A stretch of DNA of 64,000 nucleotides, taken from Amphiscolops sp. MND2022 (lineage: Eukaryota). Where the stretch lies: NCBI GenBank assembly GCA_964187785.1, contig OZ076418.1:41478001-41542000 (forward strand), given 5' to 3'. Positions 1 through 28,726 of the stretch are shown one piece after another; positions within the stretch are counted from its first letter, which is position 1; each line of letters starts with the position of its first letter. The notes under the pieces are model-generated. The model was given only the letters and a program-made list of their open reading frames with translations, searched no databases and had not been told where the DNA came from. The position numbers and the translations under genes are program-made.

Positions 1-342
1 GGGGTTCCGCTCGCAGGAACTCCACTAGACACCACAAACAATGTGAGGTTATATTACAATACGATAACAGCACTCGGCTTTAAGGAAAAAAGTAACGGAA
101 TCAAACTTGAGGATTACGAGGACAATCATTTTTTCCTTGTCTTTGACCTGACTTCAACAGAGGAGGCTAGCAAAAACTTTACACTCTTTCCCGAACTCAC
201 CGGTTCCAGCCTAACCTTAAAGTTGTACTTTGAAAAAGCTCTGGACGATGCAATCGAGTTATTTTTGATTGGGGAACGGTTCAGTCAAGTCACTATAGAT
301 TCAGCAAGAAATATAAAGAAAAACAGACCATATGATGGATAA
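1..342 (+). CDS. Polinton major capsid protein, C-terminal part (5'-partial)
   Basis: Frame is open from base 1 (GVPLAGTPLDTTNNVRLYYNT...). FLVFDLTST, LTLKLYFEKAL and GERFSQVTIDSARN match the C-terminal pattern of Polinton MCPs, and the ORF sits directly upstream of the protease. Confidence 0.75.
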   Translation, partial: GVPLAGTPLDTTNNVRLYYNTITALGFKEKSNGIKLEDYEDNHFFLVFDLTSTEEASKNFTLFPELTGSSLTLKLYFEKALDDAIELFLIGERFSQVTIDSARNIKKNRPYDG

Positions 343-865
343 CGCAACTCTAAAACACATGATCCTTCGCAACTCCACACTGAGCGTAGCCTTTGCGGGA
401 ATTTGGTCAGCAGACAACTTCAACTTGCAACCAGTCACAACTGAAACGACCACAAACTTTCTCGCAAGCGAACGATTGGTTTGGTTTCAAATTGTAAATA
501 CTTCCCCGCGAAACTCACATGGATCGCACTGGTTGCTTCTCGGCGCTACTATTGCGCAGGGACAAAAGAAAATGCAGGTGTTCGTCTGGGACTGTTTGGG
601 TCAACCAGTGTCTGTCTACACAATGTTTTTCAATCGCCTGAATCAATTGTATGGAAAAACGGGATATCGACAAATTGCACTCAAACTTCAAAATGCTAGT
701 TCCAATATGTGTGGTCTCTATTGTCTCTTTTTGATTCACTATATAGCAAAAAAACCCTACGAATTGTCTCAAATCGATGAAAAATTGAAATTATGTAGTG
801 AAATTGAAATAATCCGTTTCATAAATGATAAATACAATACATTATTCAGATATACTGTGTTTTGA
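332..865 (+). CDS. Adenain-like cysteine maturation protease (Polinton PRO)
   Basis: GSHWLLL (His), VWDCLG (Asp) and LQNASSNMCGLYC (Gln/Cys) motifs. Start overlaps the MCP stop; AATAAA just after the stop (~870). Confidence 0.88.
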   Translation: MMDNATLKHMILRNSTLSVAFAGIWSADNFNLQPVTTETTTNFLASERLVWFQIVNTSPRNSHGSHWLLLGATIAQGQKKMQVFVWDCLGQPVSVYTMFFNRLNQLYGKTGYRQIALKLQNASSNMCGLYCLFLIHYIAKKPYELSQIDEKLKLCSEIEIIRFINDKYNTLFRYTVF

Positions 866-910: not shown

Positions 911-3900
911 CTAGGCCAGGCCATGCGTCGCGTCGTTTTCATCGCTACTGGAAGAATAGTCTACAATTTGTATTTTACGACGACTTTGACTGTTCAATTT
1001 TCTCGAGGGAAGTTGCTCATTGGTTTGAATACAATCATCACCACTCGACTCTTGGGCCTCGTAGTTGATAAACGGGCAGTTGAACTTGTCTTGGTTTTCA
1101 TCAGCCTCAAGGTCTACAGACAAATTGTCCCAGTCAACAATATCCGAAAGCTCATCAACGTCGGGTATTGAAGTTTGTTGATAAAGACCAGGATCGGGGG
1201 CAGCTGAAAGAAAACCAAGATCAGACTGGCATGCTAAAAGTGCAGGCTCTTGAATAAATGTAGCTTTGGAATCGATACTACTACTCACTGAAACTCGCCG
1301 ATTGCCATGCTCTTTTCAGGGGACTGCTGTGACTCGGTAAAGAAGCCGACGATTCATCTGATGAACCACTACTACTACTACTTTCGTGACTGTCACTTGG
1401 GGAGGAAAAGCTAGTGTTGCTACTACTGCTGCTGCTGCTTGAGCTCCTCAAACTCTCACAGTCGGTAGATTCGTCATTTGTGGGTTCAACGGAACCTACA
1501 AGAAAGTTTTGAAAGTTTTGCACTTGGGCAAATCTTTTAATGAAATTGAATAAACTAACCTCGGAGAGATGAAGGTATTTCATAATGACCATAGGCGAGA
1601 GAATTGATTCCATCATCCATTATGTACCGCTTGTCGTCAAACGAGCTGAGAGCTATTTTGTCGACAGAGTTTACAACAATTTGATGATTGAAGGAACGAA
1701 GTTGAGTCATTCTTTTGGTGAAGTTCTTTTTCGATAGAAGGCATTGTTTGAAAAGATCGTGATGCAGAGTCTTTTTAACCGTTTTGGAGACGCCTTTGGC
1801 GCTCTGCTTCTTACCTCCAACAAAATCTATACTATAAAGTTTGGACCTCAGACATACTACCTCGCGAAGCATTTTGCCCTGCAGTTCATCTGTCATTGTC
1901 AAGGGGACCTTTTTGTTTGTAGGATCATACAAAAAATGTTCACGTGGATAATCTGAAAGGTCCAGTAGGTGCTTGAAACATGCCATGTCTTGGTACAAGT
2001 CATTTGTCTCGATACAGTATAGGAGGGAATCAGTATCTTTGTATGCCAGTTTCAATCGGGCTGCAGTATACCGAGGAATCATCACTTCGTAGTGGAATTT
2101 GTAGAGAGAAAGTTTTGATAGATCTAGAATAGCAGCACCAACCGGAGTTGGTTTGTCCCACACCACACAAGCCATTTTGAAGGAAACACTCACAAGTTTT
2201 TCGTTGATGACCTGAAAAGACTTGAAAGATGCTTTCTCAACAAAAGATTCCGCCTGCTTTGCACTTGAAACAAACTTTAAGTTGCTGCGCTTCCGTAGAT
2301 TCTCCATGGTCTTTCCAAAGCAAGCATTACTCATCAGTTTGAAAAAAGCCTTCTCGAAATCATTGTCTGCTTGTTTCCGCATTACTGTGTTTTTTTCTAT
2401 GTAGACACCGAGCCACTTGCTCTGTTTGAATTCGCAAACACGATGCACTCTGTCTACAACGAGACCGTGCTTAACGTAGAATTTCAAATTTTCATAGTGA
2501 CATACATAGTTTTTCTTATCGAAGAGAGTCTCTATCAGTTTGGCTGTTTTGCTCGGCTTAACACCGAAGCTTTCAGCATAGTCAGATAGCCAAGATTGTT
2601 GAATTATCTTTTTCTCGGGTGCCAGCGGGAGGCCATTGTGAGCATCGTGTAAATGCTTGGGATATAGAAAGTCAACTTCAACAAAGTAACCCAGAGGTGA
2701 ATCAGTTGGAGTATCAAGCAATTCCTGTAGAGTGATAGACGTGTTCCATTTGTAATCTCCGCTTGGCATCAATTGTTGCATTGTACCCGCGTAAAGGGAT
2801 GTTACATCGAAAAAGGCACCAAAAGTAGTAGTTTCACTGGAAGCAAAACTCGGTAATAGAGGATTGTTAGCCGTAAAGTGACGAATTTCACCAATTCCAT
2901 TGACTCCCCCACGTATACCACGTTCGAAAAACAATAGTTTATCAATATCATCCAGCAAACCCAGCTTGGCTTCAGTTGAAATGAGCATAGCGTCCCAACT
3001 GAGGTTAGGGGCTGAAAAGAAGTGTGCCGGATCGAGTTTGTACACCTTGATGCAAACCCTTCTAAAGTTTTCAAAAATATCAGCAAGAAGCAAAACGTCG
3101 GTTTGTAAGTAAACATCATGATACTCGCCGAGTGTTTTACAAGAGAATGCGTTGTAGATAGAAACAGCTTCATCAAACTCTTCATTAGTGATATCGATTG
3201 ATCCCGTCAACGAGTTTTTCCAGTCGTTACCATATGGTGGCAAAGGTGCTTCAAACTTGCTGAAGCTATCCAAAAAACCGTAGGGAAAATAACCCTTTTT
3301 AATGAGTTTTTTGAATAACCCCTCCGAAATGTTGGAGAAGTAGCCACGAAGGTGAACGAAATCCTTAGACTGCAACGTTTTTGCCAAAGCGTCAAGACTT
3401 TGAGGCATAAATTGTAAGCTGTCGAGAAATCTGAGCGAATGATATAGTGACACTATTCGATTACGTTTGTCCTTATAACTCCCAACGGGTACGGCAATAC
3501 TAACAGAAGTGTAGGTTTCATCAGTCTTGAATATTGCTGAAAGTTTTTCACCAGGTTTCAGCTGTAGATTTTTTGAAATGTGGTGCGAATCATATCGAGA
3601 GAAATTGTGAAAGAAAATTGGGAGGAAGTTTGATGATCTTGCTCTGAGGTTGCATTTTGAATGTGCCACCCCAAAGATTTCACCAGTCAAATGGCAATGA
3701 TGAATGACCCGAGTTGACTTTTCAGCATCCTTGCCACAAATACAACAGATTTTTGAGTCTCCAGATAAATATTTTTCCCGCTCCGATTTTGAAATTCGGA
3801 GCCAGCGGAAAGTTTGCTTCTCATGATAACACCACAGTGTCCATTCACGCAGAACAGAAAGTAATTTGTCGATACAATTCTGGCCGCGATAGAAGGAGCT

Positions 3901-5402
3901 TTTCACAACACCATCAGCTGAAAAGAAATATTTGAATCCCAGAAAAAAATTTTGAAAACGACAAAACTGAACCACTCACCTCTCATGTCAATTAGAACAG
4001 CTCCGTAACTGGCAGGGTACTGTCGCTCAATTTCACGCGTTTTGGATCTTGCGTCGGAGCCCGATTCCGACTGTGGCACATTGATCGCCTCCAAATCAGC
4101 GTATACCGTAAAAGGACATCTTTGTGTTTTTTGCCAATTCACAAATTCAACAACTCGGCCTTGCCCGGGCATCACAATTTCCAGAGGGACATTAGTTTCA
4201 CAAAACTTCAAGTGCCTTTGCATGTTTTGTTTTGCTATCGGCTGGTAACAGTTGCGGCAAAAACGGCTCTTCGGGCCCGCTTCTCGTTTTTTGGGAGATC
4301 GTGATAAATGATGAATAATGTTTGAGAAATTTTTTATCAGACAATAGTGACTGCGCTTTCCATTGACAAGTCTTAAAAGATCCACTCGGCGTCTTGACTT
4401 CTTGTTCTTGCTGCTGTAAATGTTGATGAGTTTGTTGTCCTCAAGTTGGTAAACGTTGATCGAGCACTTATTTCTCATTTCAAATGAGCGAATTCCCGAA
4501 AGCGGCATTGGCATTTGCTTGGGGTCGAAATTCAGTTTTTCAATGTTTTTCATATGACTCTTCGGTCTGAATGGAGAACCAACAAAAGAAAATAACGCAG
4601 CTGCAATGCAATATAAAAAACAGAAGCTATCTTTTTTATTGACGATGTTCAATAAACTTTTTTTGAGATTTCGAAGGATTGGAGGAGTCTCAATGTATGT
4701 GCCAGGAGGTGAGCTGGCAATCTGAGCTGTTTTAATTTCCAATCGGGAGAGTCTATCGACAACCCAGCCTGAACCGCCAGTGGCAAACATATTCAGCTGA
4801 GACATTAGCTGATCGACATGACCCAAGAATTCATCCATGGTCATTTCAACTGACACCCTTGCCATATTCGAATTGAAGTAAGCTTCAGTTGTTTCATCTA
4901 GTAAAGGTTTCATGAGGCGAACGGCGATTGAGAAGCCAATCCTAACGTTTCTCGCAACTTGCAATTTTGAATTAATAAAGGCCAGTAATTCGTTTTTGAA
5001 CGACACCAGGCAATTGAACGGGTCAATGAACCCCGAATCTTTCATTTTCATTCGATGGATTTGAAAGCGAGAATTGAACGCCTGAGTGGTAAACTCTACA
5101 GTTGCTGACGCTGAGTGGGTAATTGGTAGAGGTTGGTGCAAATGGACTGTTTCCTCATGTTCGTTCAGAGTTGTCAGTGAACCAAAAATAGTTGGACAAG
5201 CAGGACATCGATGGCTTTCATTCATATTATGCTGAGAGCGTAAATGCCTCAGCAAATTTTTAGTTTGAGTGAATGCTACAGAGCAGTGGCCACACTGAAA
5301 GACTTTGGTTGCGTTATTGCTATTGGGGTGTTTCGTTCTGAGATGATTAGTGAGGGCCCGTTGTGATACAAGAATTTTTCCACATTCACGGCATGAATAC
5401 AT
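911..5402 (-). CDS. polB: Protein-primed family B DNA polymerase with N-terminal C2H2 fingers; 4 exons (5402-3980, 3917-1560, 1495-1289, 1203-911), ~1426 aa
   Basis: Exonuclease motifs YADLEA, FHNFSRYD, YLQTDVLLLADIFE; polymerase motifs DVTSLY, KLMSNACFGK, YKDTDS, AKGV. Papain/OTU-like CFLYCIAAAL and HYCLI, and an EndoVII-like CCICG...HHCHLTG insert. Four separate ORFs join in frame through three GT-AG introns of 62, 64 and 85 nt. Confidence 0.9.
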
Positions 5403-6279
5403 TTTAGACGAATGCCGTGTTTAGAATATTTGTCATCATAGTCTCGTTCCAATCTTTCTATGCACATGAAATTTCGAAATTTGAATTACACAAGGACGCA
5501 CATTTGATTTTGAACTAAAGCAATAGTTACCAGAGCCGCATATGCGGTAAAGGAGTCGGATTAGGTCTTTTTCCTTCTGACTCGCTCGAATACCAGTCAT
5601 ACGAATTTGATAAAATTGCACACAAAGGATCATGATATGGTGTAGAATGACTCTACAAAATTTCGTTCGAATCGTACGGACAGTTTTTGAGAAAATCGAA
5701 AAATGGCTGTTTTTGGCTATGTTTCTCACATTCCAGTCATACAATTTTGACGCCATTGCGCAGACAGGGGCCCCTTTCGGTGTAGAATGATTGTGCAAAA
5801 TTTCATGAAAATCATATGGACAGTTTTTGAGAAATTTGAAATTTTCATAAAAGGTCGGGAGAAAAAACGATCCGATTGCATAAGTAGTCGAAAATTTTTC
5901 CGACTCCTAAAAATTTTCATCTGGAATGAGACTATGATCGATGTTTTTTTCCAAGGAATTTTACCCTGTTTTTCTAAGTTTCGGAATTCAGGAATAAAAG
6001 GGTTTTCGTTGTTCAATCAGAAATATCGTGTTTCCTTGAATTCTTAATCAAGGTTATAATTCTATTCAATTTTGTTCTTTTGGCTACTTTCTATGATAAC
6101 TTTCGTGAATTGTCAGGAAATGGCAAAATTAGTTGATAAAATCAATAAAAGTTGAATCTCAGTTACCATTATTGAAATGTATTGAATTCAGAATGCACCT
6201 TCATCATTAGTTTGCATTAGTAAACATTCATGACAATTGGCATACATTCCGCTCAGTATGGTTATAATGAACTTTAACC

Positions 6280-6408
6280 TTTCTGACTTAGAATAATTTC
6301 GGTCGGGAGCCCTAAAAGTGAGATAGGTTTCTGTCTTAGAATAATTTCGGTTGGGAGCCCTAAAAGTGAGATAGGTTTCTGACTTAGAATAATTTCGGTT
6401 GGGAGCCC
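6280..6408. repeat. Subterminal 48-bp tandem repeat (~2.7 copies) of Polinton 1
   Basis: TTTCTG(A/T)CTTAGAATAATTTCGGT(C/T)GGGAGCCC at 6280, 6328 and 6376. Confidence 0.9.
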
Positions 6409-6442
6409 AAAACATCATTAAACCCCCCCTGCTATTACTACT

Positions 6443-6553
6443 TACAAATTAACCGGATATTACTTCGGTTTTCGCGAAATGGTGTCTCACCCATACTACG
6501 AATTCAACGAAGATTAGAATTATTCGGATGCGAATTAACCGGAGTTGACTGTA
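6443..6553. mobile_element. Right end of a probable Tc1/mariner-type MITE interrupted by Polinton 1
   Basis: Ends GAATTAACCGGAGTTGACTG followed by TA, a typical TACAGTC...GACTGTA terminus, with an internal AATTAACCGGA repeat. No left end between here and the Polinton terminus. Confidence 0.4.
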
Positions 6554-7022
6554 AATAAATTCATTATGATGGTGCTGTTTCTAAATTGATTACATTTTTC
6601 TCAAATTTTCCAGATTTGAGAATGCTCCATCAAATAGTCGAAGCTTTACTTCAGTAATAATAAAAGCATTAATGCTTTTTCGTGATGTCATTTTCAGAAC
6701 ATGTTTCAGATAGACTTGCAACCGAAATCATTATTCGTTTCTGACCAGTTGTTGAAATTGGTCAGAAAAATATTCAATCATATGAACAACTTGTGATAGC
6801 AATCCTTCATTGACAAGAAACTGATTTACAAACTCTTATCTAAAATCAGAATACTTACACAAAAGCGTGAAACCTCACTAACTGTAAATGTGGTCGCTGA
6901 AAGACGCTTTATTCGCAATTTGTTCACGAAAAACGACGCTGACTTTACCCGCGAAAAATCTTCAGATCCTTTCATTACATTTTTATTCCTTATACGGAAG
7001 AGTATTTTATATAGAAGCCAAC

Positions 7023-10000
7023 CTTGGATAGAAGCCTCCGACTTTTATGAAGTGATTGTTGATGGCAGTTGTAATGAACAAGGGTGACTTGGATGGTAAC
7101 GATCCAAAATCTCCCCACAGATAAGATACGCATGCTTTCAGATGAGCATTTTTGGTAATTTTATCAAGAACTGCCTCCGTTGATTGTTCGAAATAAGTGT
7201 TGAACAAAGACATGGGTTTCATAAACCTCGTAGCTCTGAATATTTTTGCAAACCATTCAGGAGCAAATTTGATTATTCCGAAACACATTTCTGCCGTTTT
7301 GCTTTGCTTGATCAGATTGCAAATTTTATCAACTGCTTCGGTTTCATCGGGAAAGTAACTTCTAAGAGCTTGCTTGTGAATTTCGCGGTCTTTGAATATG
7401 AGAAACTTTCTGAAGTTCTCTGGTTGGATTCAGGGCTGGATTACTACTGTAGTGTCGATTCAAAAATGGAAATTATCTACCAACAATTCCACTAAATGGT
7501 GAATCTCAAAATCTATGCCCATTGTTAAAGTACTACAGTTAGTCTATTGCGTCCCATGTTCGGAAGAAACTCGAGTTTAATTCCATATTGCCATCAATTG
7601 GTTCAATGCATTTTCCATTTTTACATATTTCTTTCTTGAAACATTTTGCCCCGGCCAGTTACGCAATTTTATTGATTGTTGGTCCTCAGTTTTTCTCAAC
7701 TGCAACGCTTCAAGCATTGTTCAAATATTGGCACCGTTTTCCATCTCAATGGCATTTTTTCTAATCCACATCAGACTTGAAAACTGGAGAAGTTATTCGA
7801 CAAAAACTGAACAAGACGGGAACGTCTAAAGTCGGCGCTATATCTAACGGCTCAAAACGCACATTTGAAATATGTGTACGTTTTCATGAAAAACTCCTGT
7901 TTTCGTACATCCGCCTCCTCCTTACTAAAACGCAATATAGTTCAGATATAACGTCAGAAGTTAGGTGAAGCTATTCAGAAGTATATAGCGCTTAACTCTG
8001 AATATTACGTGGAGGGACTTCAAAAAAATCGAAGGGGGGCTTTGAAGACAAAAAAAAATCGAAAGTCTCACAGCGCCGAAAAAATGAAAGGGGGAACTTT
8101 TAGTCTCGTCCGGTTTTGTATGTAACGTTTAAAAAGTAAAAATTGAAAGGGATAACTTTGCGATACCTTAGATGCGTTTCCCAGGTATTCGTTTAGTTGA
8201 GCAAACTGAACAAAAATTTCGTCGCTTCGAGTCTGTCTTAAAAAAAACGAGTGACTGTAATAGTCGGGCTCTTTTATTAATAAAAGCGCCGACTCAAAAG
8301 GGGGACATTTTGAGCTTTTTGAAAATCCAAATTGTTGCAAAAATAAACCAGGGGGCCCTATGGAGAATTGAAACATTCTCTAAAGAAGTCTAACAAAGCC
8401 GAAATAAGCATTAAAAAAACTTAATCAAGTGCGAGACTCGAACCTACGTCCTTCTGCTTCACAGACATCAAAAAATCCGGTTTAGCCTCCGAGCCAAGTG
8501 GCAGAAGTTACAAGCTACTAAGCAACAGCTTATAAAACTTTAAAAATCTGTCAGTTCGCCGGTCTTAGTCACTACAAGTCTGCTCTTTCTACGAAAGCGC
8601 CGACTAGAAAGAGTGCTTCCTACTTGCTCAAACAAATCCATCATTCTACTTTATTTATTCGTTTTCCAACCCTGATTAGTTCCAATGATGGCTTCGTCGT
8701 AAGCAGAGTCCATGGGTGCCCATTGTATCTGACCCTCAGTGAGTTGTTCCATAGTCTGGTAAGTCGCGTTTCTAGCATACATGCTGCCCACGTAATGCAG
8801 ACCAGTGTCAAACTCAAAACGACCCTCCTTGAAAGTGTGACAACATCCGCCCAGTTTGGTGTGCTGTTCCAACACCAGAACTTTCTTACCTTCAAACAGT
8901 GATAATAAAATGATTGTAGGATTCAGGCAGTAAGCCAGAAGAAATAATTTCATTTCTCAAGAATCTTGAAAATTTCCTACCCTAGTGAAGCACTTTATCG
9001 GTGAACTTCGTGTGGTTTTTTTCACTAAATCATGAGTATTTTTCACTGCATGAGTAGCAATCACTGCATTAATTGGGAAAAAACGTTATTTTCCCCCGAT
9101 TAAATAAAGAAATAACGAATAAAGAGAATTTTAGTTATCAAGAATCTTGAAAACTTCGGACCCTGTTTTAAACATCAGACATAGTCTAAGTAAGTGGCAA
9201 ATTCTTCGTCCAAGATGTTGAATTTCAATTCTTTATATTTTGCCAAGTGACTTTCACTATGTTGGTAAATTTCGTTTGGTCGTCTAAGATTTTGGTATTG
9301 CACTACCTGATCTTTCAAATTTTTACCAAAAAAGAATATATCTTTCGAACTGATGACGAAAAATGATCTGATAGTTGGTTTCAACTGAAAAAATCATCTA
9401 CCCTAAAATTCATACTTTCAAAATAGGCCCCTCCGGGGCTCAGTACTATTTCTGCTTTAATCTTTATTTTTTTTGAAACAAAAAATTCATTAATAAAAGA
9501 ATCATATCTGGAATACCAATACACTCTTGTTTAATCATTATTTAGCGCACAATTACATGTAATCACTGTACAAGTTTACACCGCCGTTAATTCTTCCCGG
9601 ACTAAAAAAAATATAACTACTAAGCGTAGACGAAGTTTCGCATTCGCATTTGAATGCAGGCGAAGCTCTCAACGAACGAATAATTAACACTCATTCGCTT
9701 CATCTCAATAACTCGGGGCAACGAAAGCACAATTACGAACATTCGCTCGCTTCATCTCAATGACGTCAGCATATGAATGGATAATTACCACTCGCTCGTT
9801 CCATCGCACTAGAATTGAATTGTCTTCGGCAGCTCTCTCGCTTACACTCACTGCCGAACAAAATATCTGAATTATTCAGATCGTCCGAAAAATTGTACTG
9901 AAAAAAAAATAAGTAGACATTTTCGGATTTCAATATTATTCCTGCTAAAGCAGAAATATTAAAAATGGATGGGAACTTTGTCCAATATAGGAACTTCATC

Positions 10001-14314: not shown

Positions 14315-14566
14315 AGTAGTGTAAATACCAGGAAGGACAGATCACTTTTTGCGCTTTGAGCCAAAAAGGCCCGCCGGCCTTTCAACAGGGGGGGTCCTTG
14401 CGGTCCAATTTTTAGGACCCTTCATAAAAGGAAGCTGGGTGGTGTCCAAATTTGAGGACCTCCATATTTGACTTTAATTTTAGCAGAGCTTATGCGAGCC
14501 ATATGTTTCCTTTGCGTGAGTTGAATTCTCAAGTGGTTTTTGTTTACAATTGTCAAGTGGTTTTGA
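14315..14566 (+). repeat. Left terminal inverted repeat of Polinton 2
   Basis: Near-perfect reverse complement of 28727-28981, differing in a G/C run length and a few bases. Confidence 0.95.
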
Positions 14567-15689
14567 TTTGTGTGTCAATATTGTGTGTCTGCCGTCTTGA
14601 GTTGAATGAAAAGCGGTGGCCAATTTTCTTTGATTGGGGATCCCACCCGATTTTCTTGTCAGAGCAGAATACCAAAAGAAATGTTCCGTCAATATGCAGG
14701 CAATTTAGCGAAAACTTCCAATTACCAGCAACCGGTTCGAGATACAGACTCCATTTTCTCCTTATTTCTCTGGACTGCAACAACTTGGTAAGTTCAAAAT
14801 TTCTTGTTCAAATATGAATATCTACTTCTCATTTTCAAAACTTCGAAATTTACTTCACAATTGACCGGGAAAGTGAATTCAGTTTTCAATAGGAATTTGA
14901 ACCATTGTTTCAAAATAGTGATAATGTGAGCTGTTTCAGTTAAACCAGCAAAAACTATCTATTGATGAAAAAGATCGACAATCAGTGGGGTGTCTATTCC
15001 AGAACCTTTTTACGAGCAGTCATTGGAATCTGAAGTTGAAACTGTAAAAATGGTAAGTGTTATCAATTTTAATTTTATGTCTCTATTACACTCTATTTAA
15101 CCAGATAACCACCTAACAAACAGATCACTGTCATTTTGTTAGACTTTCAAACCTTTTGTGTTTAGATCGTGTTTTCACATGGCGTGACATCATTCCGAAC
15201 GATGAAAGTGAAACAGTGCAATCAGCAAGTTCGAGTAGTGGTAGTCAACACCCGAATAGTATCATTCCAACACCACAGATGAGTTTAAAATGAATACAGC
15301 TCTATCTAGTAGACTCTCTTCTTTCAACTCAAAACCTTCTTCATAACAATTCAATCCCACACATTCAAACATCAGGAATTTGAAAACTATACTTTTTACG
15401 TTAATTGTGATATCAATATACATTTCACAAAGATAATGAAGAACATACTGCTCGATTAAAAATTTGATGACGCCTCCTTTTTTTTGAAATTTCAGTATCT
15501 CTAACTATTAATTTTGACCAATACAATAGGGAACATTCTACGTCTGATTGGAAAATCGTTGATATATCCGGCTTTTTACCTATGTTTGTGTCTTTATCTC
15601 TCGAAAGTATCAAGATCCATTGCTAGGGAGAACTTGTCTAACGATTGAAAAATTCTTTATATCCGGCAATTTACCAGCATTTGTGCCTT

Positions 15690-17384
15690 AAACTCTCAAA
15701 ATGGCTTACTGTAGTGTACTTCCATTGGGGATAAGTTCTGTTGGTTTGAAAAATTGTTGAATATTTCCAGCATTTTTGCTTTTTAAATCTCTTAAACTCT
15801 CAAAATGGCTTACTTTGGTGTACTTCCATTGGGGATAAGTTCTGTTGGTTTGAAAAATTGTTGAATATTTCCCGCATTTTTGCTTTTTAAATCTCTTAAA
15901 CTCTCAAAATGGCTTACTTTGGTGTACTTCCATTGGGGATAAGTTCTGTCGGTTTGAAAAATTGTTGATTATTTCCAGCATTTTTGCTTTTTAAATGTCT
16001 GAAACTCTAAAAATGGATGACTTTTGTGTACTTCCATTGGGGATAAGTTCTGTCGGTTTGAAAAATTGTTGAATATTTCCAGCATTTTTGCTTTTTAAAT
16101 GTCTTAAACTCTAAAAATGGATGACTTTAGTGTACTTCCATTGGGGATAAGTTCTGTCGGTTTGAAAAATTGTTGAATATTTCCAGCATTTTTGCTTTTT
16201 AAATGTCTGAAACTCTAAAAATGGATGACTTTAGTGTAGTTCCATTGGGGATAAGTTCTGTCGGTTTGAAAAATTGTTGAATATTTCCAGCATTTTTGCT
16301 TTTTAAATGTCTTAAACTCTCAAAATGGCTTACTTTAGTGTACTTCCATTGGGGATAAGTTCTGTTGGTTTGAAAAATTGTTGAATATTTCCAGCATTTT
16401 TGCTTTTTAAATGTCTTAAACTCTCAAAATGGCTTACTTTAGTGTACTTCCATTGGGGATAAGTTCTGTCGGTTTGAAAAATTGTTGATTATTTCCAGCA
16501 TTTTTGCTTTTTAAATGTCTGAAACTCTAAAAATGGCTTACTTTAGTGTACTTCCATTGGGGATAAGTTCTGTCGGTTTGAAAAATTGTTGAATATTTCC
16601 AGCATTTTTGCTTTTTAAATGTCTTAAACTCTAAAAATGGATGACTTTAGTGTACTTCCATTGGGGATAAGTTCTGTCGGTTTGAAAAATTGTTGAATAT
16701 TTCCAGCATTTTTGCTTTTTAAATGTCTGAAACTCTAAAAATGGATGACTTTAGTGTAGTTCCATTGGGGATAAGTTCTGTCGGTTTGAAAAATTGTTGA
16801 ATATTTCCAGCATTTTTGCTTTTTAAATGTCTTAAACTCTCAAAATGGCTTACTTTAGTGTACTTCCATTGGGGATAAGTTCTGTTGGTTTGAAAAATTG
16901 TTGAATATTTCCAGCATTTTTGCTTTTTAAATGTCTTAAACTCTCAAAATGGCTTACTTTGGTGTACTTCCATTGGGGATAAGTTCTGTCGGTTTGAAAA
17001 ATTGTTGAATATTTCCAGCATTTTTGCTTTTTAAATCTCTTAAACTCTCAAAATGGCTTACTTTAGTGTACTTCCATTGGGGATAAGTTCTGTCGGTTTG
17101 AAAAATTGTTGAATATTTCCAGCATTTTTGCTTTTTAAATGTCTTAAACTCTAAAAATGGATGACTTTAGTGTACTTCCATTGGGGATAAGTTCTGTCGG
17201 TTTGAAAAATTGTTGAATATTTCCAGCATTTTTGCTTTTTAAATGTCTCAAACTCTCAAATTGGCTGACTTTAGTGTAGTTCCATAGGGGATAATTTCTG
17301 TCGATTTGCAAAATTGTTGAATATTTCCAGCGTTTTTGCTTTTTAAATGTCTTAAACTCTCAAAATGGCTTACTTTGGTGTACT
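15690..17384. repeat. 104-bp tandem array (~16 units), family A, young
   Basis: Unit GTGTACTTCCATTGGGGATAAGTTCTGTCGGTTTGAAAAATTGTTGAATATTTCCAGC... with period 104 (e.g. 15721, 15825). Two sub-variants (ATGGCTTAC / ATGGATGAC) alternate. Confidence 0.97.
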
Positions 17385-17489
17385 CTTGAACAATGTACTC
17401 TCCTGTACTTCCGTTTTTGTCGATTATTCTTCCGGTTCCATTTGCAAATTTTGTATTTCTCTCATTTGCTATTTGGTAATTTCACTACT

Positions 17490-17561
17490 CCCATGATGTA
17501 GACACAATGTACTGGGTAAGACGGGCCTAACCCAGCCTGCACAGTACGAGTGTCTACTGGG
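17490..17561. other. Nested-stem hairpin, copy 1 (duplicated at 19244-19315)
   Basis: CCCA/TGGG, GTAGACAC/GTGTCTAC, GTACTG/CAGTAC and GGT/ACC complementary pairs nested in order. Confidence 0.6.
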
Positions 17562-17696
17562 GTCTTAGTATTGGTTAACCTCTCTTGAAGCAGTTAGACC
17601 GTTACAGCTCTACTCTTCAAGAATCGGGTTGAGGTTAACCCAAGACTTCAGTAGGCACTCAAAATCTCTTGCACAAGTACTGATTTGATTCGGTTC

Positions 17697-17830
17697 AAAT
17701 CTTAACTTTCCTTCCACCTTTCAATACCTCAACACCGACTATATGGCGGTATGACCTGTAAATCTTTACTTTCCTTCCACCTTTCAACAGCTCAACACCG
17801 ACTATATGGCGGGCGGTATCACCTGTAAAT
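17697..17830. repeat. ~63-bp direct repeat, 2 copies
   Basis: AAATCTT(A/T)ACTTTCCTTCCACCTTTCAA...CTCAACACCGACTATATGGCGG at 17697 and 17760. Confidence 0.9.
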
Positions 17831-18364
17831 TGTGCAATTTTTCTACGTTGCGTGGAATTACTGCAATATTGTTTCAATTGTACTTGAAATTAACCAGCTT
17901 GTTCCGTCCTCTTTTTTACTTCTGACTTCTCTTTTTTTTTGTCTTGGAAATAGTTTCTCTGGCTGTCATTTTTTCGCTTGTGAAAGGCTGAGAACCAGAA
18001 CTCCTAGTATTCAACAGGTTCTTAGAGTATTGTACAAGCGCTTTGGAATAGATACTACTATGAAAGTTGATAATTTGATCAAGAAACAAACCTGTGTGCT
18101 CTATGAAGTTCAAAAAATTGGTGGTCTTTTATTAACTTTTTTCTCGTAATTTAGGCTCTATAATCCGGGGAGACTCATTAACTTTCCTATTGAATCTGTC
18201 TTCACCTGCGGACACGCAACTAGCATTCTTAGCTTTTCACAGCTTTGTGGAGTATCGTACACGCGCTTTGGATTAGACGATACTTTGAGCTTTATTGTTT
18301 TTTTTTGGTATTTGAGAGAGCTTGAGAGATGGGAAATTGTTTTTTTTTCTTTTTGTCTTATGCC

Positions 18365-19235
18365 CAGTGTACTTCCAAAGGGGATAAGTTCCATCAGTTG
18401 GAAAAGTTGTTGAATCTTTCCAGCATTTTTGCTTTTTAAATCTCTTAAACTCTCAAAATGGCTTACTTTGGTGTACTTCCATAGGGGATAAGTTCTGTCG
18501 GTTTGAAAAATTGTTGATTATGTCCAACACTTTAGCTTTTTAAATGTCTTGGCATTCTAACATGGTTTTGTCTTCATCTCCTGAAATTTTTAGTTTCATG
18601 ATCCATTACTAGGGAAGAACTCATGTTCGATTGAAAATCCTTCTTAAAATCCGGCGTTTTACCATTGTTGGTGTCGTTATCTCTCAAAATGGTTTTCTTT
18701 CAAGATCTATTGAAAGGAGACAACTTATGTCCGAATGAAAACTCCTTTATATCCGAAATTTTACCAAGGTTTGCGTCTTTAACTCTGGAATTGGTTACTT
18801 TAAATTTTCAGTGAGGGGAGAACTAATGTCAGAATGATAAATGGTTGTCTATAACCGACATTTCACCAATGTTCGTGTCTTAATCTCTCGAAATGTTTAG
18901 ATTCAAGATCCATAGCTTGGGGAGAACGTATTACCGATTGGAAAATCGTTGGTATGAATCGTCTTTTCACCATTGTTGGTGTCTCCAACATGCAAAATCG
19001 TTACTTTCAACATATATTGATTGGAGAAAATGTATGATCGATTGAAACTTGTTGATTATAAGCGGCATTTTACTAATGTTAGTGTCTTCAACTCAAAAAT
19101 GGCTGCTTCTAGTAACTATTGATGGGGGATTAACTTATGTCTCATTGAAAAACTGTTGGATGTTACCAGTATTTTCGTCGTTTTTGCCTCTTTTGTATTA
19201 GTGAATCTACTCTGTCCGATTGAAAACTGGATAAT
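18365..19235. repeat. Second family-A array: ~1.7 young units followed by diverged ~104-bp units
   Basis: 18365-18545 matches the young unit. Downstream units retain GGGAGAACT..TGT.CGATTGAAAA and CTCTCAAAATGG-like motifs at about 104-bp spacing. Confidence 0.75.
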
Positions 19236-19243
19236 TATCTCCT

Positions 19244-19315
19244 CCCATTTTGTAGTCACAATGTACTGGGTAAGACGGGCCTAACCCAGCCTGCACAGTA
19301 CGAGTGTCTACTGGG
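19244..19315. other. Nested-stem hairpin, copy 2
   Basis: Core is identical to copy 1 except GTAGTCAC, one mismatch in the outer stem. Confidence 0.6.
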
Positions 19316-19869
19316 GTCAAAGTATTGGTTAACTTCTCTTGGAGTAGGTAGATCGTTACAGCTCTGCTCTTCAACGGTTGGGTTGAAGTTAACCAAGGAC
19401 CCCAATGGACACTCATTTCCATTATTACAACCCAAATTAGGTTCATTCGCCTTCAGTTGTTTTAGAATCTCCCTTTTATTTCTGGTTCTCTTGACCTTTT
19501 GCATTCCCAACCGCACCTCTCATCCCAATTTTATCAGCACCTAGAAGATTCCAGTGCTTTTGAGACCAACAGGAACGGCTCCATTTCCACGTTTTTTAAT
19601 CCTCTCCTGAGGAATACTGAAGGGATGAAACTAACTTTTTGATCGTCTTGGTCGAAAGTTTTTTGGTTACCACCTTACCTTTTTCAGGACCTTTTCAATG
19701 TTTTTTTTTGTAAACGTGACATGAATGATACTCTCATTCTTGATGTTTCCACGTGCCATTGTAGGAATGTTTCAACATTTGACTTTTGATCAAGAATCTG
19801 ATTTTTTCAGAAAGGTTGGTAATAGATTTCACTGTGATTGTATCCATGTTGTGAGATATTTCCTCACCT

Positions 19870-20397
19870 CACCTCACCTCCTTAAGTCTCGCAAATGAGT
19901 CTGATGTGCTGTAAAAAGGTTTTGGAATAGATATCACTGTGATTGTTGATGTTTTCAAGTGCTGAGCTGTTTCCATTCCTCGCCTCCTTAAGTCTCGCAA
20001 ATGAGTCTGATGTGCTGTAAAAAAGGTTTTGGAATAGATATCACTGTGATTGTTGATGTTTTCAAGTGCTGAGCTGTTTCCATTCCTCGCTTCCTTAAGT
20101 CTCGCAAATGAGTCTGATGTGCTGTAAAAAGTTTTGGAATAGATATCACTGTGATTGTTGATGTTTTCAAGTGCTGAGCTGTTTCCATTCCTCGCTTCCT
20201 TAAGTCTCGCAAATGAGTCTGATGTGCTGTAAAAAGTTTTGGAATAGATATCACTGTGATTGTTGATGTTTTCAAGTGCTGAGCTGTTTCCATTCCTCGC
20301 CTCCTTAAGTCTCGCAAATGAGTCTGATTTGCTGTAAAAAGGTTTTGGAATAGATTTCACTGTGATTGTTGATGTTTTCAAGTGCTGAGCTGTTTCA
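19870..20397 (-). repeat. 105-107-bp tandem array (~5 units), family C
   Basis: GTCTCGCAAATGAGTCTGAT at 19886, 19992, 20099, 20204, 20309. The 105-bp units are stop-free in two minus-strand frames (35-aa repeats). Confidence 0.95.
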
Positions 20398-21269
20398 AAC
20401 ACCTCAGCGCTTGATCTCCTTGACCTTGGTAAAGTGTCGTAAAAAGGCTTTGGAATAGTACTAAGATCTTTAAATACATTGGTATTCTCTCTTCTTGGCT
20501 TCGAATAGGTTTGTAGCGTGTTGTAAAACACTATGTAATAGGTATTACACTGGATATGGATCTTTTTGAGTACTAAGCAATATTCCAATTTTATGTTTTT
20601 TTTTGTTCTGACTAAATCTCTGTTGTTTAGTTGTTTATATTCTGCATTTCACCATTGTTGGCGTCTTCGATTCGAAAGTGGTTACTTTTGAGATGAAATG
20701 ATAGGTGAGAACTTTTTTCCAATCGAATAAGTGTTAATTTCAACTTGGGGAGAAGTTACGTCCGATCGAAAAGTTTTTGGAATATATACCGTACTTTACC
20801 ATTGTTAGTGTCTTTGAATCACATGGTTACTTGTAAGATCTATAGTGAGAAGAACTCATGTCCGTTTGGGAAAAATTGTTTTTTATTTCCGGCTTTTCAC
20901 CTTTGTTAGTGACTGCATACTTATTTCCTCCCAGTAGCTTACTTTTTTATCGATGTCGGTCGAAATGGAATAGGTTTCATTCGAATTGTTGATGGTTTCG
21001 CATACCACAGTCTCTGATTCACTCAAGTATCGGAATATTTTCAGCAAAACGAGCCGTTTTAGAGTCAGTTTTAATTTCAGTGACAATTCTTGAACCGTTT
21101 TCGGGAAGGATCAGTTTTGTGTTCAGTGATAATACCAGACTGACTACAGGAGTGTTGTGGAAACATTTCGGAATAGATTTTACCAACGTTGTTGGTTTCA
21201 ACTACTAAAGATTTTCGAAATTTAATTGTTTCGGGTATCAAAGAGGTGGTCCTATTCACTTAATAATCC

Positions 21270-21560
21270 AGTTTATTTTTTCAGCATTGCCTTCCATGTA
21301 AATCGAGACGGTTAGAAGGTATAGGTTCCCAATCTAAATCGTTTGTGCTAGTCTTCAGAGGTTTTCAAAAACATCAGCCAGACTAGAAACATCCAGCTAG
21401 AGATATCAATCAGGATACTGTTACAAATGTATTTGGCTCCTGATTTTCCTACCACTTTGATATTCCCTACAAATTGTTTGAAAAGCTAAATAACTACCAG
21501 TTTCTGATATGATATTCTCTTTATGGAAATAGACTAGAATATTATCTGAATGATTTGAGG
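21270..21560 (-). pseudogene. Decayed fragment of a second pPolB gene inside Polinton 2
   Basis: Minus strand reads QIH-L*QYPD*YL*LDVSSLADVFEN ... TWKAMLK, aligning to QIHNLGEYHDIYLRVDVTTLADVFEN ... AWNAMLK of the intact polymerase, with stops and frameshifts. Confidence 0.75.
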
Positions 21561-22143
21561 TTCAAAACATATGGCTATTTGCTGGATTAGAAAGACAGTA
21601 TTCTACTATTTTCACTATACTATTGACTTGAAACTATGTTATTCTTGTGTGTGTGGGATTGATATTGATATTAAATTTGTCGTAGTGACATCAATTTTAA
21701 TTTAAAAAAATTTGAACTTTCCTTTTTTCATTATAAAGCAGTTTGAGTTTGTAACAGAATACCGAAGAAATAGTTTGAGAAATCTAGTATCGAGCAAATA
21801 AAATTCATCAAGTTTTAAGATCATTTACCAGAATTCAAGTTATTCCATGTGTATGTGTGTTTGGGTTGAGTTTATAGTATTCTTCTTGTTACTGAATTTT
21901 AGAAAAGATTAATACAATTGCAAAACTTTCACAACGAATTTTTGTTGTTTGATTCAAAGACTCAATAGCTGAAGGAAAATATCTATTGCAAAGATTTAGC
22001 AGATGTTCATTTTGGAATTTAAACGCTTGTGATTAGTAACTTAGAGTAAACTCAATCGAGCTCCGCTGGAAGAAAAGCCAAGTCAAATCCGAAAACATTT
22101 ATTTCACCAAAATTGTGGATAGAATTTGATATAAATGCATCAT

Positions 22144-25100
22144 TCAACTTTTTTCCAGCGCTTCATATATTATCAGAGGGTTATTCGGTCTTGTCCGTTT
22201 CGGGGGAATGTATACTAACTCGCTCTCGGATTCTTCTGATGATATGAACCCTGGATCAACGTCGTCGTCTGAAAAGAGTTCGGAATCAGCATCGCCCTCG
22301 TCTTGCTCATGGCCTAACCGCTCACACGAGTGTTTTGTTACAATGAAATCTCTAGCATTCAACAAAAGACTAGGATCTTCTTTTGTGATTGTGCTTTTAC
22401 TGATAAAATTTGTGCTAGATGCCTTGTAGTGACCAAAAGCCAGCGTTTCATGTCCTTCTGTCATGTACCGTTTATTATCTACACTACTGAGAACGATTTT
22501 GTCACATTCTTCCACAAAGAGCTCCAAGTTATGAGATCTTAAGGTTCGCATTTTCTCTTTGACGGTGAGATTCTCTCGGAGCACTTCTTTGTACAGCTCG
22601 TGGTGTAGAGTTTTCTGTATTGTTTTCGTCACCCCTTTTGCACATTTTTTAATTTTGTTTGACGCTGAGATGCTATACATTTTCGCTTTCAAGCCGACGT
22701 ACTCATCGATCACCACACCATTCATCTCATCCTTCATCTTCAGCACCTTTCTCTTGTTGCTATCGCTGTACAACGGGTGATCTTTTGGGTAGTCCGAAAA
22801 ATCGAACACCTCTTGCATGGATTCAAAATCTTTGTATAAATCTTCAGTTTCAATAGCTAGTAAAAGCGAGTCTGTGTCTGAATACAAAAGTTTTGCCTGA
22901 TCACCATACTTTGGTTTTACTGTTTCATACAAAAACCTATACATGACCAATTTTGATAAGTCCAAAACGGAAGCTCCGATGTAGGTTGGTTTATTCCAAG
23001 TTACTATTGTCTTGCTCATCAACACGGCGCAGAGGTCAGGATGAAATATTTTGAAAGATTTGAAATTCGGTTTGCTGATGTATTTTTGACACTGATCCTC
23101 ATCGGTAAAAAGTTTAATGTTTTGTCGATTCATCAAATCTTCCATTGACTTGCCAAACACCGAGTTATTGAGCAGTTTCCCGAGATCTTTCAAACAATCG
23201 GTTTTGGCTGTACGTCTGATGCTTGTATTGATGTCTATGTAGGTTTTCATCCAGGGGCTCTGTTCAAATTTTATTATTCGGTGAACTTTGGAAATGACAA
23301 GACCATGTCGCACGTAAAATTTCAATATCCTGTAGTGACAGACGTAAAACTGCTTCCCATGGAAGGTTTGTAATAGCTTCATAGTTCTGCCCGAGTCACA
23401 ACTGGTTTCTGATTGCCACATTGATAGCATTTCTTTGGTGATTTCCATGTGATCTGGTGCCAAAGGGTAATCGTTATGTTGATCATGCAGCTCTGATGGG
23501 TATTCTAAGTCTAAAACCACGAAATAACCATGCGGAGAGCTGTCACTGGTCGCCAAAACGTCTTCGATTGATATTTTTACATCTGAGAAATTTCCTGAAG
23601 GTAAGTTTTCACACATAACTCCTCCATATAAATTGTTTGCGTCCAATAGGATTAACCACGTTGTCGGCTTTGTATCCTCATAGTTCTCACATCTTGGGTT
23701 ATTTGCTTGAAAGTAACGACTGTGGTAGACACCACACATGCCACCCCTTATTCCCCTCCTCACGATGTCTAGGTGATCCTTTTCGGCGAGTATATCTAGC
23801 TTCACTTTCGTAGTTTTCAGCATTGCGTTCCATGCGAAATGGGGGGCTGTTAAAAAGTGGGCTGGGTCTAGATTAAAGTGGTGGAAACACAATTTCCGGA
23901 AGTTTTCAAACACATCAGCCAAAGTAGTAACGTCTACTCGTAAATAAATATCGTGATACTCGCCTAGATTATGAATTTGAAGTGCATGCCACACGTCTTT
24001 GGCATGCTGGTAGTCGGATTCAGAGATTCGCTCATTGGTTAGAGTATTTATCCAAATATCCGGTAACTTAGTTTCGCTGAATTTCGTGAAAGAATCCACA
24101 TAACTATATGGATACACACCTTTCTGGAGAATAAGGTTTTCTTGTTCCTTTGTTAGATACGCAAAAATATGGTTAAACGAAGGAAATGGTAAAGAGTCAG
24201 CTTTCATGGTCTCTATGAGGCTGCTCAGAGATTTTGCTTGAAATCGGTAACTGTCAATGAATCGGAGCCTCTCGAATGTAGTTTTCCTTTCGTTGTTTTT
24301 GTTTTGAAATGTTCCCGTGGGTATCGATATTGAGAAGCTGATAAACTCTTCCGAGTTGTTGGCAATACAATCTAGTTTTTCGTCCTCCTCTCCACGTTGA
24401 TAATATCTCAGAATTTGTTTGAAGTCATATTTCGACCCATTATGGAAAACTATCGGGGTGAAATTTGTGGTTCTACATGATGAATTGCAGTTTTTATGGG
24501 CAATACCACGGAATTCTCCATTCAGGTGATTGTGATCAATGACGCGATCTGACTCGAGAACTTCCCCGCAAATTGAGCAATGCGTAGCCTGCTCCAAAAG
24601 TTTTTCATCACCGTAATTTTTTCTATATATGGGGAACTTTCGTTTGCTTTTGTAAATATCCTTGGCCCAGAGGCGCATTGTATCCAGGAATTGATTAATA
24701 CAATTTTCATTTCTGCTGAAAAAAGTTTTGCAGACCTTTCCTTCCCCATTCAGACAAATAGCAAAAATACCACAAGGTATTTGTTTTTCAATTTTCCGAG
24801 TGCTTGCCTTGTTTTGAGGCTCGTTCACTTTGGGGGTTATAGCTTCCATATCTGCATAAATGATAAATGGCACTCGCATGGTAGCGGAGAAATTTTTCCA
24901 AAACATCTGAGTGTTGGATTTCATCTTGATGCGACAGGGTTTTTCTGCACAAATCATTTTGTGATTTTCGAAGGAGTCTTGTCCATAACTACCACATAGA
25001 CATTTGCGACAGTAAAATTGATTCTTCTTTTTTGTTTGTCTTCTCATGAAAGCTTGAAAATTCGTGATGAGACAGTAATGAAACTTACCATCTTCCTCCA

Positions 25101-26130
25101 GCAGTAGAAGATCAATAGGATAATAATCTTTATGAGATATACGGAGGGGGTAAACATCTTTGTCGATAGCAAAAACATTGATTGATAATTTGTTTTCATC
25201 CTCAATTTTTTCAATGTCTTTCAGCTTCACAGGTGTTTCTACCTGAGACATATCAGGACCACTCAATGTTTTGTATACTCCTGGTCGGTTTCGATTTTTG
25301 CTGATCGTCAAATAGTGTTGGGCGGCCTTGATACAGAGTTCGAAACAATTGTTTGATTTCAAAGTTTTTATATTGAGGAGAAAATGGTTGTTGGCGAACT
25401 TTCTTGGAGTTGGAATAAAGGTTCCAACTTTAATTGGTGTATGTTTTGCAAAGTTCAGGCCCAAGTTCAATATTTTTTTCACGGTCCATCCTGATCCATG
25501 CTGGCAAAAGTTTTCGAACTTTTTCAATATCTGATGTTTCAAATCCGTGTAGATCGCAGGTGTAAGGCCATCGCTATAAAGCGTCTGCATTTTTGAAATG
25601 AAACAAGTGTCTATTTCGATTTCCTTAGTGGGCTTGAAAAGTTTTACACAGAGAGAGAGTTGAAATTTAATGCTTGATTGAGTCTGCAAATCAGTCTGTA
25701 CTAATGAAGATATACGTTCAAAATATTGGTCGAGGAAAGTTACTGGGTCTAAAATCAAAGCTTTTGGAGTGATTGATAAAACTTTCAAATAATTTTTTCT
25801 GGTACTTTCCACCAGTCGATAGTCGTCCTCTTCACAGCTTCGAGCCGTTTCGTTGTCTGCTGTCACTCGATGGACCTTTTGATTTTGTTTCACTTCGGTT
25901 TCGTTAACGAACTGCGAATCGCAACTGTTGAAGGAAATGCTCGAACGATGTAAACGTTTCTGATGACGTTTGAGAGCATGTCTTGTTGTGAAAGTTTGAT
26001 TACAAAGATTACAAATATAATTCATAGCTCGAGATGGTCCAATATTGTGTTTTTGTTTCAAATGCTTTGTTAAACTATTCTTCCATTTGTAACTTTTTGG
26101 ACACAGCTCACAATTGAAATTTGAATTCAT
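22144..26130 (-). CDS. polB: Protein-primed family B DNA polymerase, intronless, 1328 aa, N-terminal C2H2 fingers, acidic C-tail
   Basis: IYADMEA, FHNGSKYD, DVTTLADVFE, LDANNLYG, KLLNNSVFGK, YSDTDS, AKGV. OTU-like CFELCIKAA and HYCLI, and an EndoVII-like CSICG...DHNHLNG insert. Confidence 0.96.
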   Translation of the reverse strand: MNSNFNCELCPKSYKWKNSLTKHLKQKHNIGPSRAMNYICNLCNQTFTTRHALKRHQKRLHRSSISFNSCDSQFVNETEVKQNQKVHRVTADNETARSCEEDDYRLVESTRKNYLKVLSITPKALILDPVTFLDQYFERISSLVQTDLQTQSSIKFQLSLCVKLFKPTKEIEIDTCFISKMQTLYSDGLTPAIYTDLKHQILKKFENFCQHGSGWTVKKILNLGLNFAKHTPIKVGTFIPTPRKFANNHFLLNIKTLKSNNCFELCIKAAQHYLTISKNRNRPGVYKTLSGPDMSQVETPVKLKDIEKIEDENKLSINVFAIDKDVYPLRISHKDYYPIDLLLLEEDGKFHYCLITNFQAFMRRQTKKKNQFYCRKCLCGSYGQDSFENHKMICAEKPCRIKMKSNTQMFWKNFSATMRVPFIIYADMEAITPKVNEPQNKASTRKIEKQIPCGIFAICLNGEGKVCKTFFSRNENCINQFLDTMRLWAKDIYKSKRKFPIYRKNYGDEKLLEQATHCSICGEVLESDRVIDHNHLNGEFRGIAHKNCNSSCRTTNFTPIVFHNGSKYDFKQILRYYQRGEEDEKLDCIANNSEEFISFSISIPTGTFQNKNNERKTTFERLRFIDSYRFQAKSLSSLIETMKADSLPFPSFNHIFAYLTKEQENLILQKGVYPYSYVDSFTKFSETKLPDIWINTLTNERISESDYQHAKDVWHALQIHNLGEYHDIYLRVDVTTLADVFENFRKLCFHHFNLDPAHFLTAPHFAWNAMLKTTKVKLDILAEKDHLDIVRRGIRGGMCGVYHSRYFQANNPRCENYEDTKPTTWLILLDANNLYGGVMCENLPSGNFSDVKISIEDVLATSDSSPHGYFVVLDLEYPSELHDQHNDYPLAPDHMEITKEMLSMWQSETSCDSGRTMKLLQTFHGKQFYVCHYRILKFYVRHGLVISKVHRIIKFEQSPWMKTYIDINTSIRRTAKTDCLKDLGKLLNNSVFGKSMEDLMNRQNIKLFTDEDQCQKYISKPNFKSFKIFHPDLCAVLMSKTIVTWNKPTYIGASVLDLSKLVMYRFLYETVKPKYGDQAKLLYSDTDSLLLAIETEDLYKDFESMQEVFDFSDYPKDHPLYSDSNKRKVLKMKDEMNGVVIDEYVGLKAKMYSISASNKIKKCAKGVTKTIQKTLHHELYKEVLRENLTVKEKMRTLRSHNLELFVEECDKIVLSSVDNKRYMTEGHETLAFGHYKASSTNFISKSTITKEDPSLLLNARDFIVTKHSCERLGHEQDEGDADSELFSDDDVDPGFISSEESESELVYIPPKRTRPNNPLIIYEALEKS

Positions 26131-28704: not shown

Positions 28705-28726
28705 AGATTGCAAACACACTTTACTG

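Follow-up and report, generated by a model that had tools for sequence, protein, structure and literature searches.

A Maverick/Polinton polymerase gene carrying three conserved GT-AG introns in Amphiscolops, likely spliced by the host

Results

The window, by which we mean the whole stretch of DNA that was analyzed, comprises 64,000 nucleotides of the Amphiscolops sp. MND2022 assembly GCA_964187785.1 (OZ076418.1:41,478,001-41,542,000; genome 1.07 Gb), and coordinates below are window positions. On its minus strand, at 5402-911, lies the DNA polymerase gene (pPolB) of a complete 14,321-bp Maverick/Polinton element. The list of open reading frames (ORFs) and their translation divided this gene into four reading frames separated by three gaps. 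The gaps are bounded by GTGAGT...TTTCAG (3979-3918), GTTAGT...TTGTAG (1559-1496), and GTGAGT...TTTCAG (1288-1204), and a T-rich run precedes each AG. The exon lengths of 1423, 2358, 207, and 293 nt place all three gaps in phase 1. Translated separately in the phase it inherits, each exon was open, with the terminal codon at 911-913 as the sole stop, and the joined exons gave 1,426 codons plus stop. An earlier sequence-only reading had joined the four frames through these GT-AG gaps, and its junctions and phases were reproduced.

Exon 1 (3980-5402, 474 codons plus 1 nt) encodes three C2H2 zinc fingers, presumed terminal-protein and vOTU domains (putatively labelled, with a Cys near 4620 and a His near 4345), and the first exonuclease motif, YADLE, at 4103-4089. 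Intron 1 (3918-3979, 62 nt) falls within the exonuclease domain. Exon 2 (1560-3917, 785 whole codons) carries exonuclease motifs II and III, an Endonuclease_7-like insert (PF02945, 25 bits), and polymerase motifs A (2808), B (2340), and C (2043), and matched PF03175 (DNA_pol_B_2) at 74 bits against a cut-off of 25.8. Its first ATG, at 3408, is past exonuclease motif II. Intron 2 (1496-1559, 64 nt) lies right behind the conserved GHY end of the polymerase, and its retention in the window copy would bring in a stop codon immediately 3' of the donor. Exon 3 (1289-1495, 207 nt) is a Ser/Asp/Glu-rich spacer. Intron 3 (1204-1288, 85 nt) has its acceptor 8 nt upstream of the DPG Asp codon, and exon 4 (911-1203, 96 codons plus stop), which in the window copy has no ATG of its own, encodes an acidic tail with DPG, DWD, and PFI-YEA motifs. 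All these features are on the minus strand. The full set of what we take to be exonuclease motifs I-III and polymerase motifs A-C was thus located in exons 1 and 2, as the earlier reading had claimed. The domain order TP-vOTU-EXO-PALM of Polinton pPolB (bioRxiv 10.1101/2024.03.18.585575) places the primer domain in exon 1.

We next compared intron 1 across copies. From 150 loci matching exon 4, 60 were hand-picked across the identity range and examined along with six further loci. Ten of the 60 lacked exon 2 and were dropped, leaving 56, of which 52 were scorable and four had no intron-1 anchor. The kept loci fall into seven families, A (that of the window) and B to G. An insertion of 58-87 nt was present in 38 of the 52 anchored loci, with the donor GT exactly placed in all 38 and the acceptor AG in 35; the three exceptions (L064, L111, and L115) are decayed copies. 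The remaining 14 loci had no insertion, the length difference being 0 in 11 (families E and G) and -1, -3, and -6 in the others. In the young family A, intron 1 was GT-AG in 20/20 loci including the window copy (62 nt in 18, 63 in one, and 59 in one), and a short pattern search of the genome gave 0 matches for a family A copy without it. Families A, B, C, D, and F, five in all, shared a single codon position for intron 1, whose interior was unrelated between families. Removal of intron 1 left no length difference to families E and G. The earlier reading had also called the spliced product collinear with an intronless pPolB 16.7 kb away (26169-22144, minus strand). This stood for exon 1, which aligned end to end with residues 18-484 of that protein, and for exon 2, which aligned with residues 479-1253 at 42% identity, apart from a one-codon length difference left at intron 1. 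The insertion lengths covered all remainders modulo 3; those of 3n length contained an in-frame stop in 10/10 cases, and 29 of the 38 insertions held a stop in the exon-1 frame, often as the first or second codon. As general explanations, both read-through and frameshifting are ruled out by these stops.

Introns 2 and 3 were more widely shared. Each was GT-AG in 29/29 scorable young-family loci (of 30, window copy included), and both were present in all seven families, G being represented by one copy. The intron-3 acceptor AG lay exactly 8 nt before the DPG Asp codon in 46/47 loci with both anchors. In ten representatives, the intron-2 donor GT lay 31-37 nt past the start of the GHY codons, and exon 3, of 171-216 nt, was a multiple of 3 in all ten. 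The uninterrupted relatives P0016, P0026, and P0027 and the neighbor P0005 have the spacer, DPG, and PFI-[YF/D]EA in frame with the polymerase; the first three could derive from either DNA or cDNA. In the window copy, the proposed junctions of introns 2 and 3 ranked top of 276 open-frame GT-AG solutions with a crude score of 14.0 versus 13.0. By itself this score is weak support for introns 2 and 3, and it is the conservation across families that decides. The tail motifs (window 1075-1055 and 1195-1127) were kept in all seven families and in the uninterrupted relatives, and were absent from more distant pPolBs.

Divergence between families was then examined. Between subfamilies D1 and D2, pN/pS values for exons 1 to 4 were 0.040/0.218, 0.025/0.223, 0.12/0.33, and 0.053/0.212, and introns 1 to 3 differed at 0.21, 0.29, and 0.15 of sites. 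All four exons are under purifying selection as judged from these substitutions, and the introns are diverging like silent sites. Between the window copy and families C and D, pS was 0.71-0.83, which is near saturation; intron positions were nonetheless identical. The introns are 28-31% GC and 39-46% T, and the exons 41-46% GC and 26-29% T. By this comparison of copies and families, the gaps are real spliceosomal-type introns that are fixed in a Polinton pPolB; random indels in sister copies, which the earlier reading had named as the finding that would speak against it, were not what we found, as the GT-AG ends and the position were kept. We conclude with high confidence that a complete, multi-copy Maverick here carries a polymerase gene with three conserved GT-AG introns, which the host likely splices out to yield one predicted protein of ~1,426 residues.

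Several observations weigh against this conclusion. Because exon 3 is of low complexity, its two borders, the intron-2 acceptor and the intron-3 donor, are placed with less certainty; the crude score favored other exon-3 junctions in many older copies, and the junctions of the representatives were hand-picked. Retention of intron 2 would still yield a polymerase with all catalytic motifs, so a need for introns 2 and 3 is not implied. An in-frame T TTT TTC run inside intron 1 of family A could in principle permit a -1 frameshift. Within the young family, introns and exons varied alike (0.0049 versus 0.0039, p 0.63; 0.0195 versus 0.0162, p 0.11), which neither supports nor refutes introns.

Three alternatives were weighed. 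The first, which we regard as improbable, is that intron 1 alone is true and needed. The polymerase would then end at the stop shortly past the intron-2 donor, and exons 3 and 4 would be an optional addition made by splicing, a separate small product, or a decaying relic. This reading is favored by a stop 1-14 codons past the intron-2 donor in 10/10 representatives (the first or second codon in 6), by most of the distant pPolBs, which end a few residues past GHY (P0040, P0041, P0043, P0049, and P0123), and by exon-4-like pieces without polymerase at 10 of the 60 loci around exon-4 matches. It is opposed by pN well below pS in exon 4 and, more weakly, in exon 3, by the 3n length of exon 3 and the fixed acceptor before DPG, by the lack of an ATG in exon 4 of the window copy, and by fusion of the tail to the polymerase in the closest uninterrupted relatives. 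The second, that the frames are joined by programmed ribosomal frameshifting instead of splicing, is very improbable. The exon 1 and exon 2 frames of family A do overlap within intron 1, and T TTT TTC fits the slippery pattern. However, the in-gap stops and the mixed lengths described above are at odds with frameshifting, which gives no reason for GT-AG ends and T-rich interiors and whose product would carry ~20 extra hydrophobic residues within the exonuclease domain. The third, that the gaps arose once the element had integrated, as damage or insertions in a pseudogene or through intron-generating transposons in dead copies, draws on the degraded state of most vertebrate Maverick loci, whose insertions gene finders read as introns (PMC8097293), on introners that enter Maverick-like dinoflagellate proviruses mostly after integration (PMC11957031), and on a copy-specific capsid frameshift in the window copy, but is equally hard to credit and largely refuted by gaps common to all scorable young copies and to families at silent-site saturation, the interiors being unrelated and the lengths different, and by purifying selection on the exons. 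The three introns and those of the other families were mutually unlike, and a 3700-4200 probe, which takes in intron 1 together with flanking exon sequence, gave only longer element matches.

Intron presence was mapped on a pPolB tree, as the earlier reading had proposed. Introns 2 and 3 mapped to all seven families, and intron 1 was patchy. The closest named polymerase relative was from the acoel Convolutriloba macropyga. P0007, P0013, and P0169 begin just upstream of the intron-1 junction with an acceptor-like hydrophobic run, and from these ORF borders alone we infer an intron 1 in them; P0012, P0016, and P0030 read through the site. Quick trees were used, and P0013 grouped with E, G, and P0012 (SH-aLRT 100) and P0169 with P0016 (98). 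A single clade of the nine intron-1 rows was rejected (p-AU 4.65e-07) in a test on 17 rows, the tested group having been chosen after the first tree was seen. Two histories fit these placements, a single gain followed by about three exact losses or three gains at one site; the former, which depends on two inferred states, seems simpler. Within this genome's own families one intron-1 event would suffice, and exact loss in families E and G is probable. The earlier description of the introns as gained holds relative to other Mavericks, with the proviso that some families have probably also lost intron 1 exactly. In the P0033/P0169 cluster, we observed an intron-3-like hydrophobic run in frame before APDPG, an ORF start just before the intron-1 junction, and no break at intron 2. 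A search of viral contigs from other hosts found no relatives; the 20 loci in metagenome contigs had best segments mostly 34-42% identical and thus lie outside this clade.

The earlier reading had called the introns host-sized and had warned that ORF-based surveys would misread the gene. A 67-nt host intron (GT-AG, phase 1, 43649-43583, identified by eye) in a retinol-saturase-like paralogue agreed with the first claim. The introns of host chaperonin genes did not: all 30 measured at least 220 nt (220-10,551 nt, median ~670), these being rough estimates from exon matches in which very short introns can hide within one match. The element introns lie at the short end of the host range, and the compactness of a possibly packaged genome may have favored short introns. 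The warning proved justified, in that the best database match, P0006 (783 aa, 99%), is the exon-2 frame only, and P0007, P0010, and P0013 likewise start or stop at intron borders. The paralogue with the 67-nt intron belongs to two near-identical host retinol-saturase-like genes (42108-43887 and 46115-47894) in a 4.0-kb tandem duplication. Each combines a single 67-nt intron with one long exon; the paralogue hit by the Maverick is, by contrast, split into many exons.

The remainder of the element was characterized. Its terminal inverted repeats are 240 bp long, match each other at 98%, and end in AGTAGT...ACTACT; Maverick terminal repeats typically have AG...CT ends. The right repeat is at 6203-6442, with the element ending in ...ACTACT, and the left one lies 7.9 kb left of the window start (L022:2122). 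The 6-bp target-site duplication TACAAA is at 6443-6448 on the plus strand, with its twin at L022:2116-2121, and each of the 11 whole copies examined had its own; such a duplication is a Maverick feature (PMC8097293). The polymerase gene has its strand to itself, beginning ~0.8 kb inward from the right terminal repeat. The genes on the other strand abut or overlap one another. They include an intronless adenovirus-type cysteine protease (332-865, plus strand; PF00770, 23.7 bits, above cut-off), a presumed major capsid protein gene with its 3' end at 1-342 (plus strand) and its beginning in L022, and, left of the window, a packaging ATPase (PF04665, 30 bits), an integrase (PF00665, 36 bits; both above cut-offs), a presumed minor capsid gene, and five further ORFs. 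The presumed capsid proteins had no Pfam or PHROGs match and were assigned from position, conservation, and Atlas features (0.96-0.97 to Preplasmiviricota clusters, of which 10-15% of members have DJR/capsid families; recognition was low). The major capsid frame, shifted in the window copy, was intact in 9/10 sister copies. Apart from copy-specific breaks, the non-pPolB genes gave single uninterrupted alignments between families A to G over their aligned parts (13 loci for the right half and 10 for the left), short introns near poorly aligned gene ends being possible. No cargo gene with introns was seen in the element. A 501-nt probe returned at least 41 matches from the best 40 of 99 candidates, the best 20 at 97-100% identity, and many dispersed copies of 97-100% with distinct target duplications imply recent spread. 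Taken together, and with the capsids presumed, the element is very probably a bona fide Maverick whose polymerase gene holds three old, conserved spliceosomal-type introns.

Further observations concern the other genes and copies. The presumed major capsid gene has CTG (AAG-CTG-G) at L022:9002 and in L056 and L057 where families C and D have ATG. This codon was found in 11/11 family A copies and in family B, with no in-frame upstream ATG, and families E, F, and G start with ATG; CUG initiation is likely in families A and B. In the family B copies L057 and L192, integrase, ATPase, and capsid proteins were 90-96% identical to those of family A and pPolB exon 2 only 66-68%, suggesting that the replication module was probably swapped relative to family A. 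The family D copy L188 has a 1.6-kb stretch, from the ATPase end to the integrase start, in three tandem copies. The exon-4-like pieces without the rest of pPolB (L087, L089, L090, L095, L099-L102, L112, and L113) shared the same internal stop in 9/10 cases, and several lie ~3.5 kb from a terminal repeat; they are perhaps a spreading non-autonomous derivative.

The Maverick is inserted in a host retinol-saturase-like gene (7022-8890, minus strand), in the intron that follows two exons at ~8890-8681 and 7447-7022; the next exon is beyond the element, in L022. The same host gene also houses, ~5 kb to the left of this element, a family E Maverick with introns 2 and 3 and without intron 1 (L021:1-7330), and a 2.9-kb tandem duplication spans the 5' end of the family E copy and a host exon. 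Named database matches of a host gene, 29-36% identical, placed the host no more closely than among the animals. The intronless pPolB used for comparison by the earlier reading (in this element annotated at 26130-22144, minus strand) is of a distant lineage and belongs to a second Maverick-type element at 14315-28981, with ~260-bp terminal repeats, AGTAGT ends, and the 6-bp duplication AGAATT. Only pPolB was recognized in this second element, the remainder being mostly 104-nt tandem repeats. A host C2H2 zinc-finger array of 84-nt repeats lies at 30396-31145 (minus strand). In the genome of another acoel, Mavericks account for 4.5% (PMC6451197).

Discussion

We propose that nuclear transcription of pPolB probably relies on host RNA polymerase II and a promoter belonging to the gene itself, and that the three phase-1 junctions, given their conservation, would be spliced by the major spliceosome. 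With intron 1 left in, the remainder would be severed from exonuclease motif I and the terminal-protein/vOTU part, and primer and polymerase would not be in one chain. Exon 1 supplies motif I, and the first ATG available in exon 2 is past motif II; the element is therefore predicted to need splicing in order to be copied. Introns 2 and 3 would link the Ser-rich spacer and the acidic tail, which occupy a single frame with the polymerase in uninterrupted relatives; the tail may be optional, because intron 2 retention would end the protein just after the catalytic core. The introns are old and were passed down over a long history of element replication that left ends and phase intact and let the interiors drift. 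The tightly packed opposite-strand genes have stayed intronless in the families compared.

A more speculative idea, which we consider unlikely, is that splicing acts as a switch. Retention of intron 1 would give a zinc-finger/terminal-protein/vOTU product without polymerase, retention of intron 2 a catalytic polymerase without the tail, and full splicing the long form. If this were true, a single gene would yield the primer protein and the polymerase at a fixed ratio, or copying would be confined to fully splicing cells. It would be a step, via introns, toward the adenoviral split of terminal protein and polymerase, and families that have shed intron 1 precisely would bear the trace of a spliced RNA stage in an element whose copying is regarded as purely DNA to DNA.

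Conserved introns in the replication gene argue for nuclear transcription by host machinery, which bears on the site of replication and on whether such an element is a virus or a transposon. With seven families side by side, some with intron 1 and some without, the gain and the exact loss of introns in an element copied as DNA could be studied in one small system. Splicing in such an element is not mechanistically startling, as related viruses and other DNA transposons splice; yet it contradicts a working rule for finding intact Mavericks, and does so with comparative support of unusual clarity. Uninterrupted ORFs are the usual mark by which such elements are recognized, and insertions annotated as introns count as decay (PMC8097293). 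The young, complete, multi-copy family described here would fail such a filter. With polymerase entries in public protein sets that hold exon 2 only, whole lineages may therefore be missed or counted as dead. We found no published description of conserved spliceosomal introns in a Maverick polymerase, although subscription journals, Repbase, and supplements may hold cases. The intron passages of PMC10748475, PMC8502044, PMC11296320, PMC11662393, PMC5718144, and PMC6431247 concern self-splicing introns or other elements, and polinton-like viruses (PLVs) have group I introns (PMC12220804).

In its general build the element resembles the animal Mavericks/Polintons (PMC8097293; bioRxiv 10.1101/2022.07.12.499685) and adintoviruses (PMC8502044), which likewise have terminal repeats, a 6-bp duplication, pPolB, and an rve integrase. 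Packaging ATPase, adenovirus-type protease, and presumed capsid genes are also shared, as is a polymerase that faces the structural module. Intact vertebrate Maverick genes are described as without introns, in agreement with Kapitonov and Jurka 2006 (PMC8097293), and nematode Mavericks have intronless core genes and intron-bearing cargo genes (bioRxiv 10.1101/2022.07.12.499685). The papers report introns solely in cargo genes of host origin, whereas here the core polymerase has three. Dinoflagellate Maverick/Polinton-like proviruses also carry spliceosomal-type introns inside the element (PMC11957031). Those are young mobile introners acquired mostly after integration, whereas the introns described here are old, unrelated in sequence between families, fixed in position at homologous codons, and inherited by a lineage that replicates.

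Parallels for the introns also come from other DNA-copied elements. The Ginger1 transposase has short GT-AG introns with conserved positions and phases (PMC2836005), as here, and CACTA elements show intron loss between families (PMC4158355), as is probable here. Unlike the present element, Ginger1 and CACTA are single-enzyme transposons without polymerase or capsid genes. Among viruses, the adenovirus E2B region encodes a related protein-primed polymerase on the strand opposite the structural genes and undergoes nuclear splicing. Splicing of E2B mainly adds leaders, whereas here the introns cut the coding body of a fused protein. The terminal protein and polymerase of adenovirus are separate proteins (bioRxiv 10.1101/2024.03.18.585575); in this Maverick they are fused.

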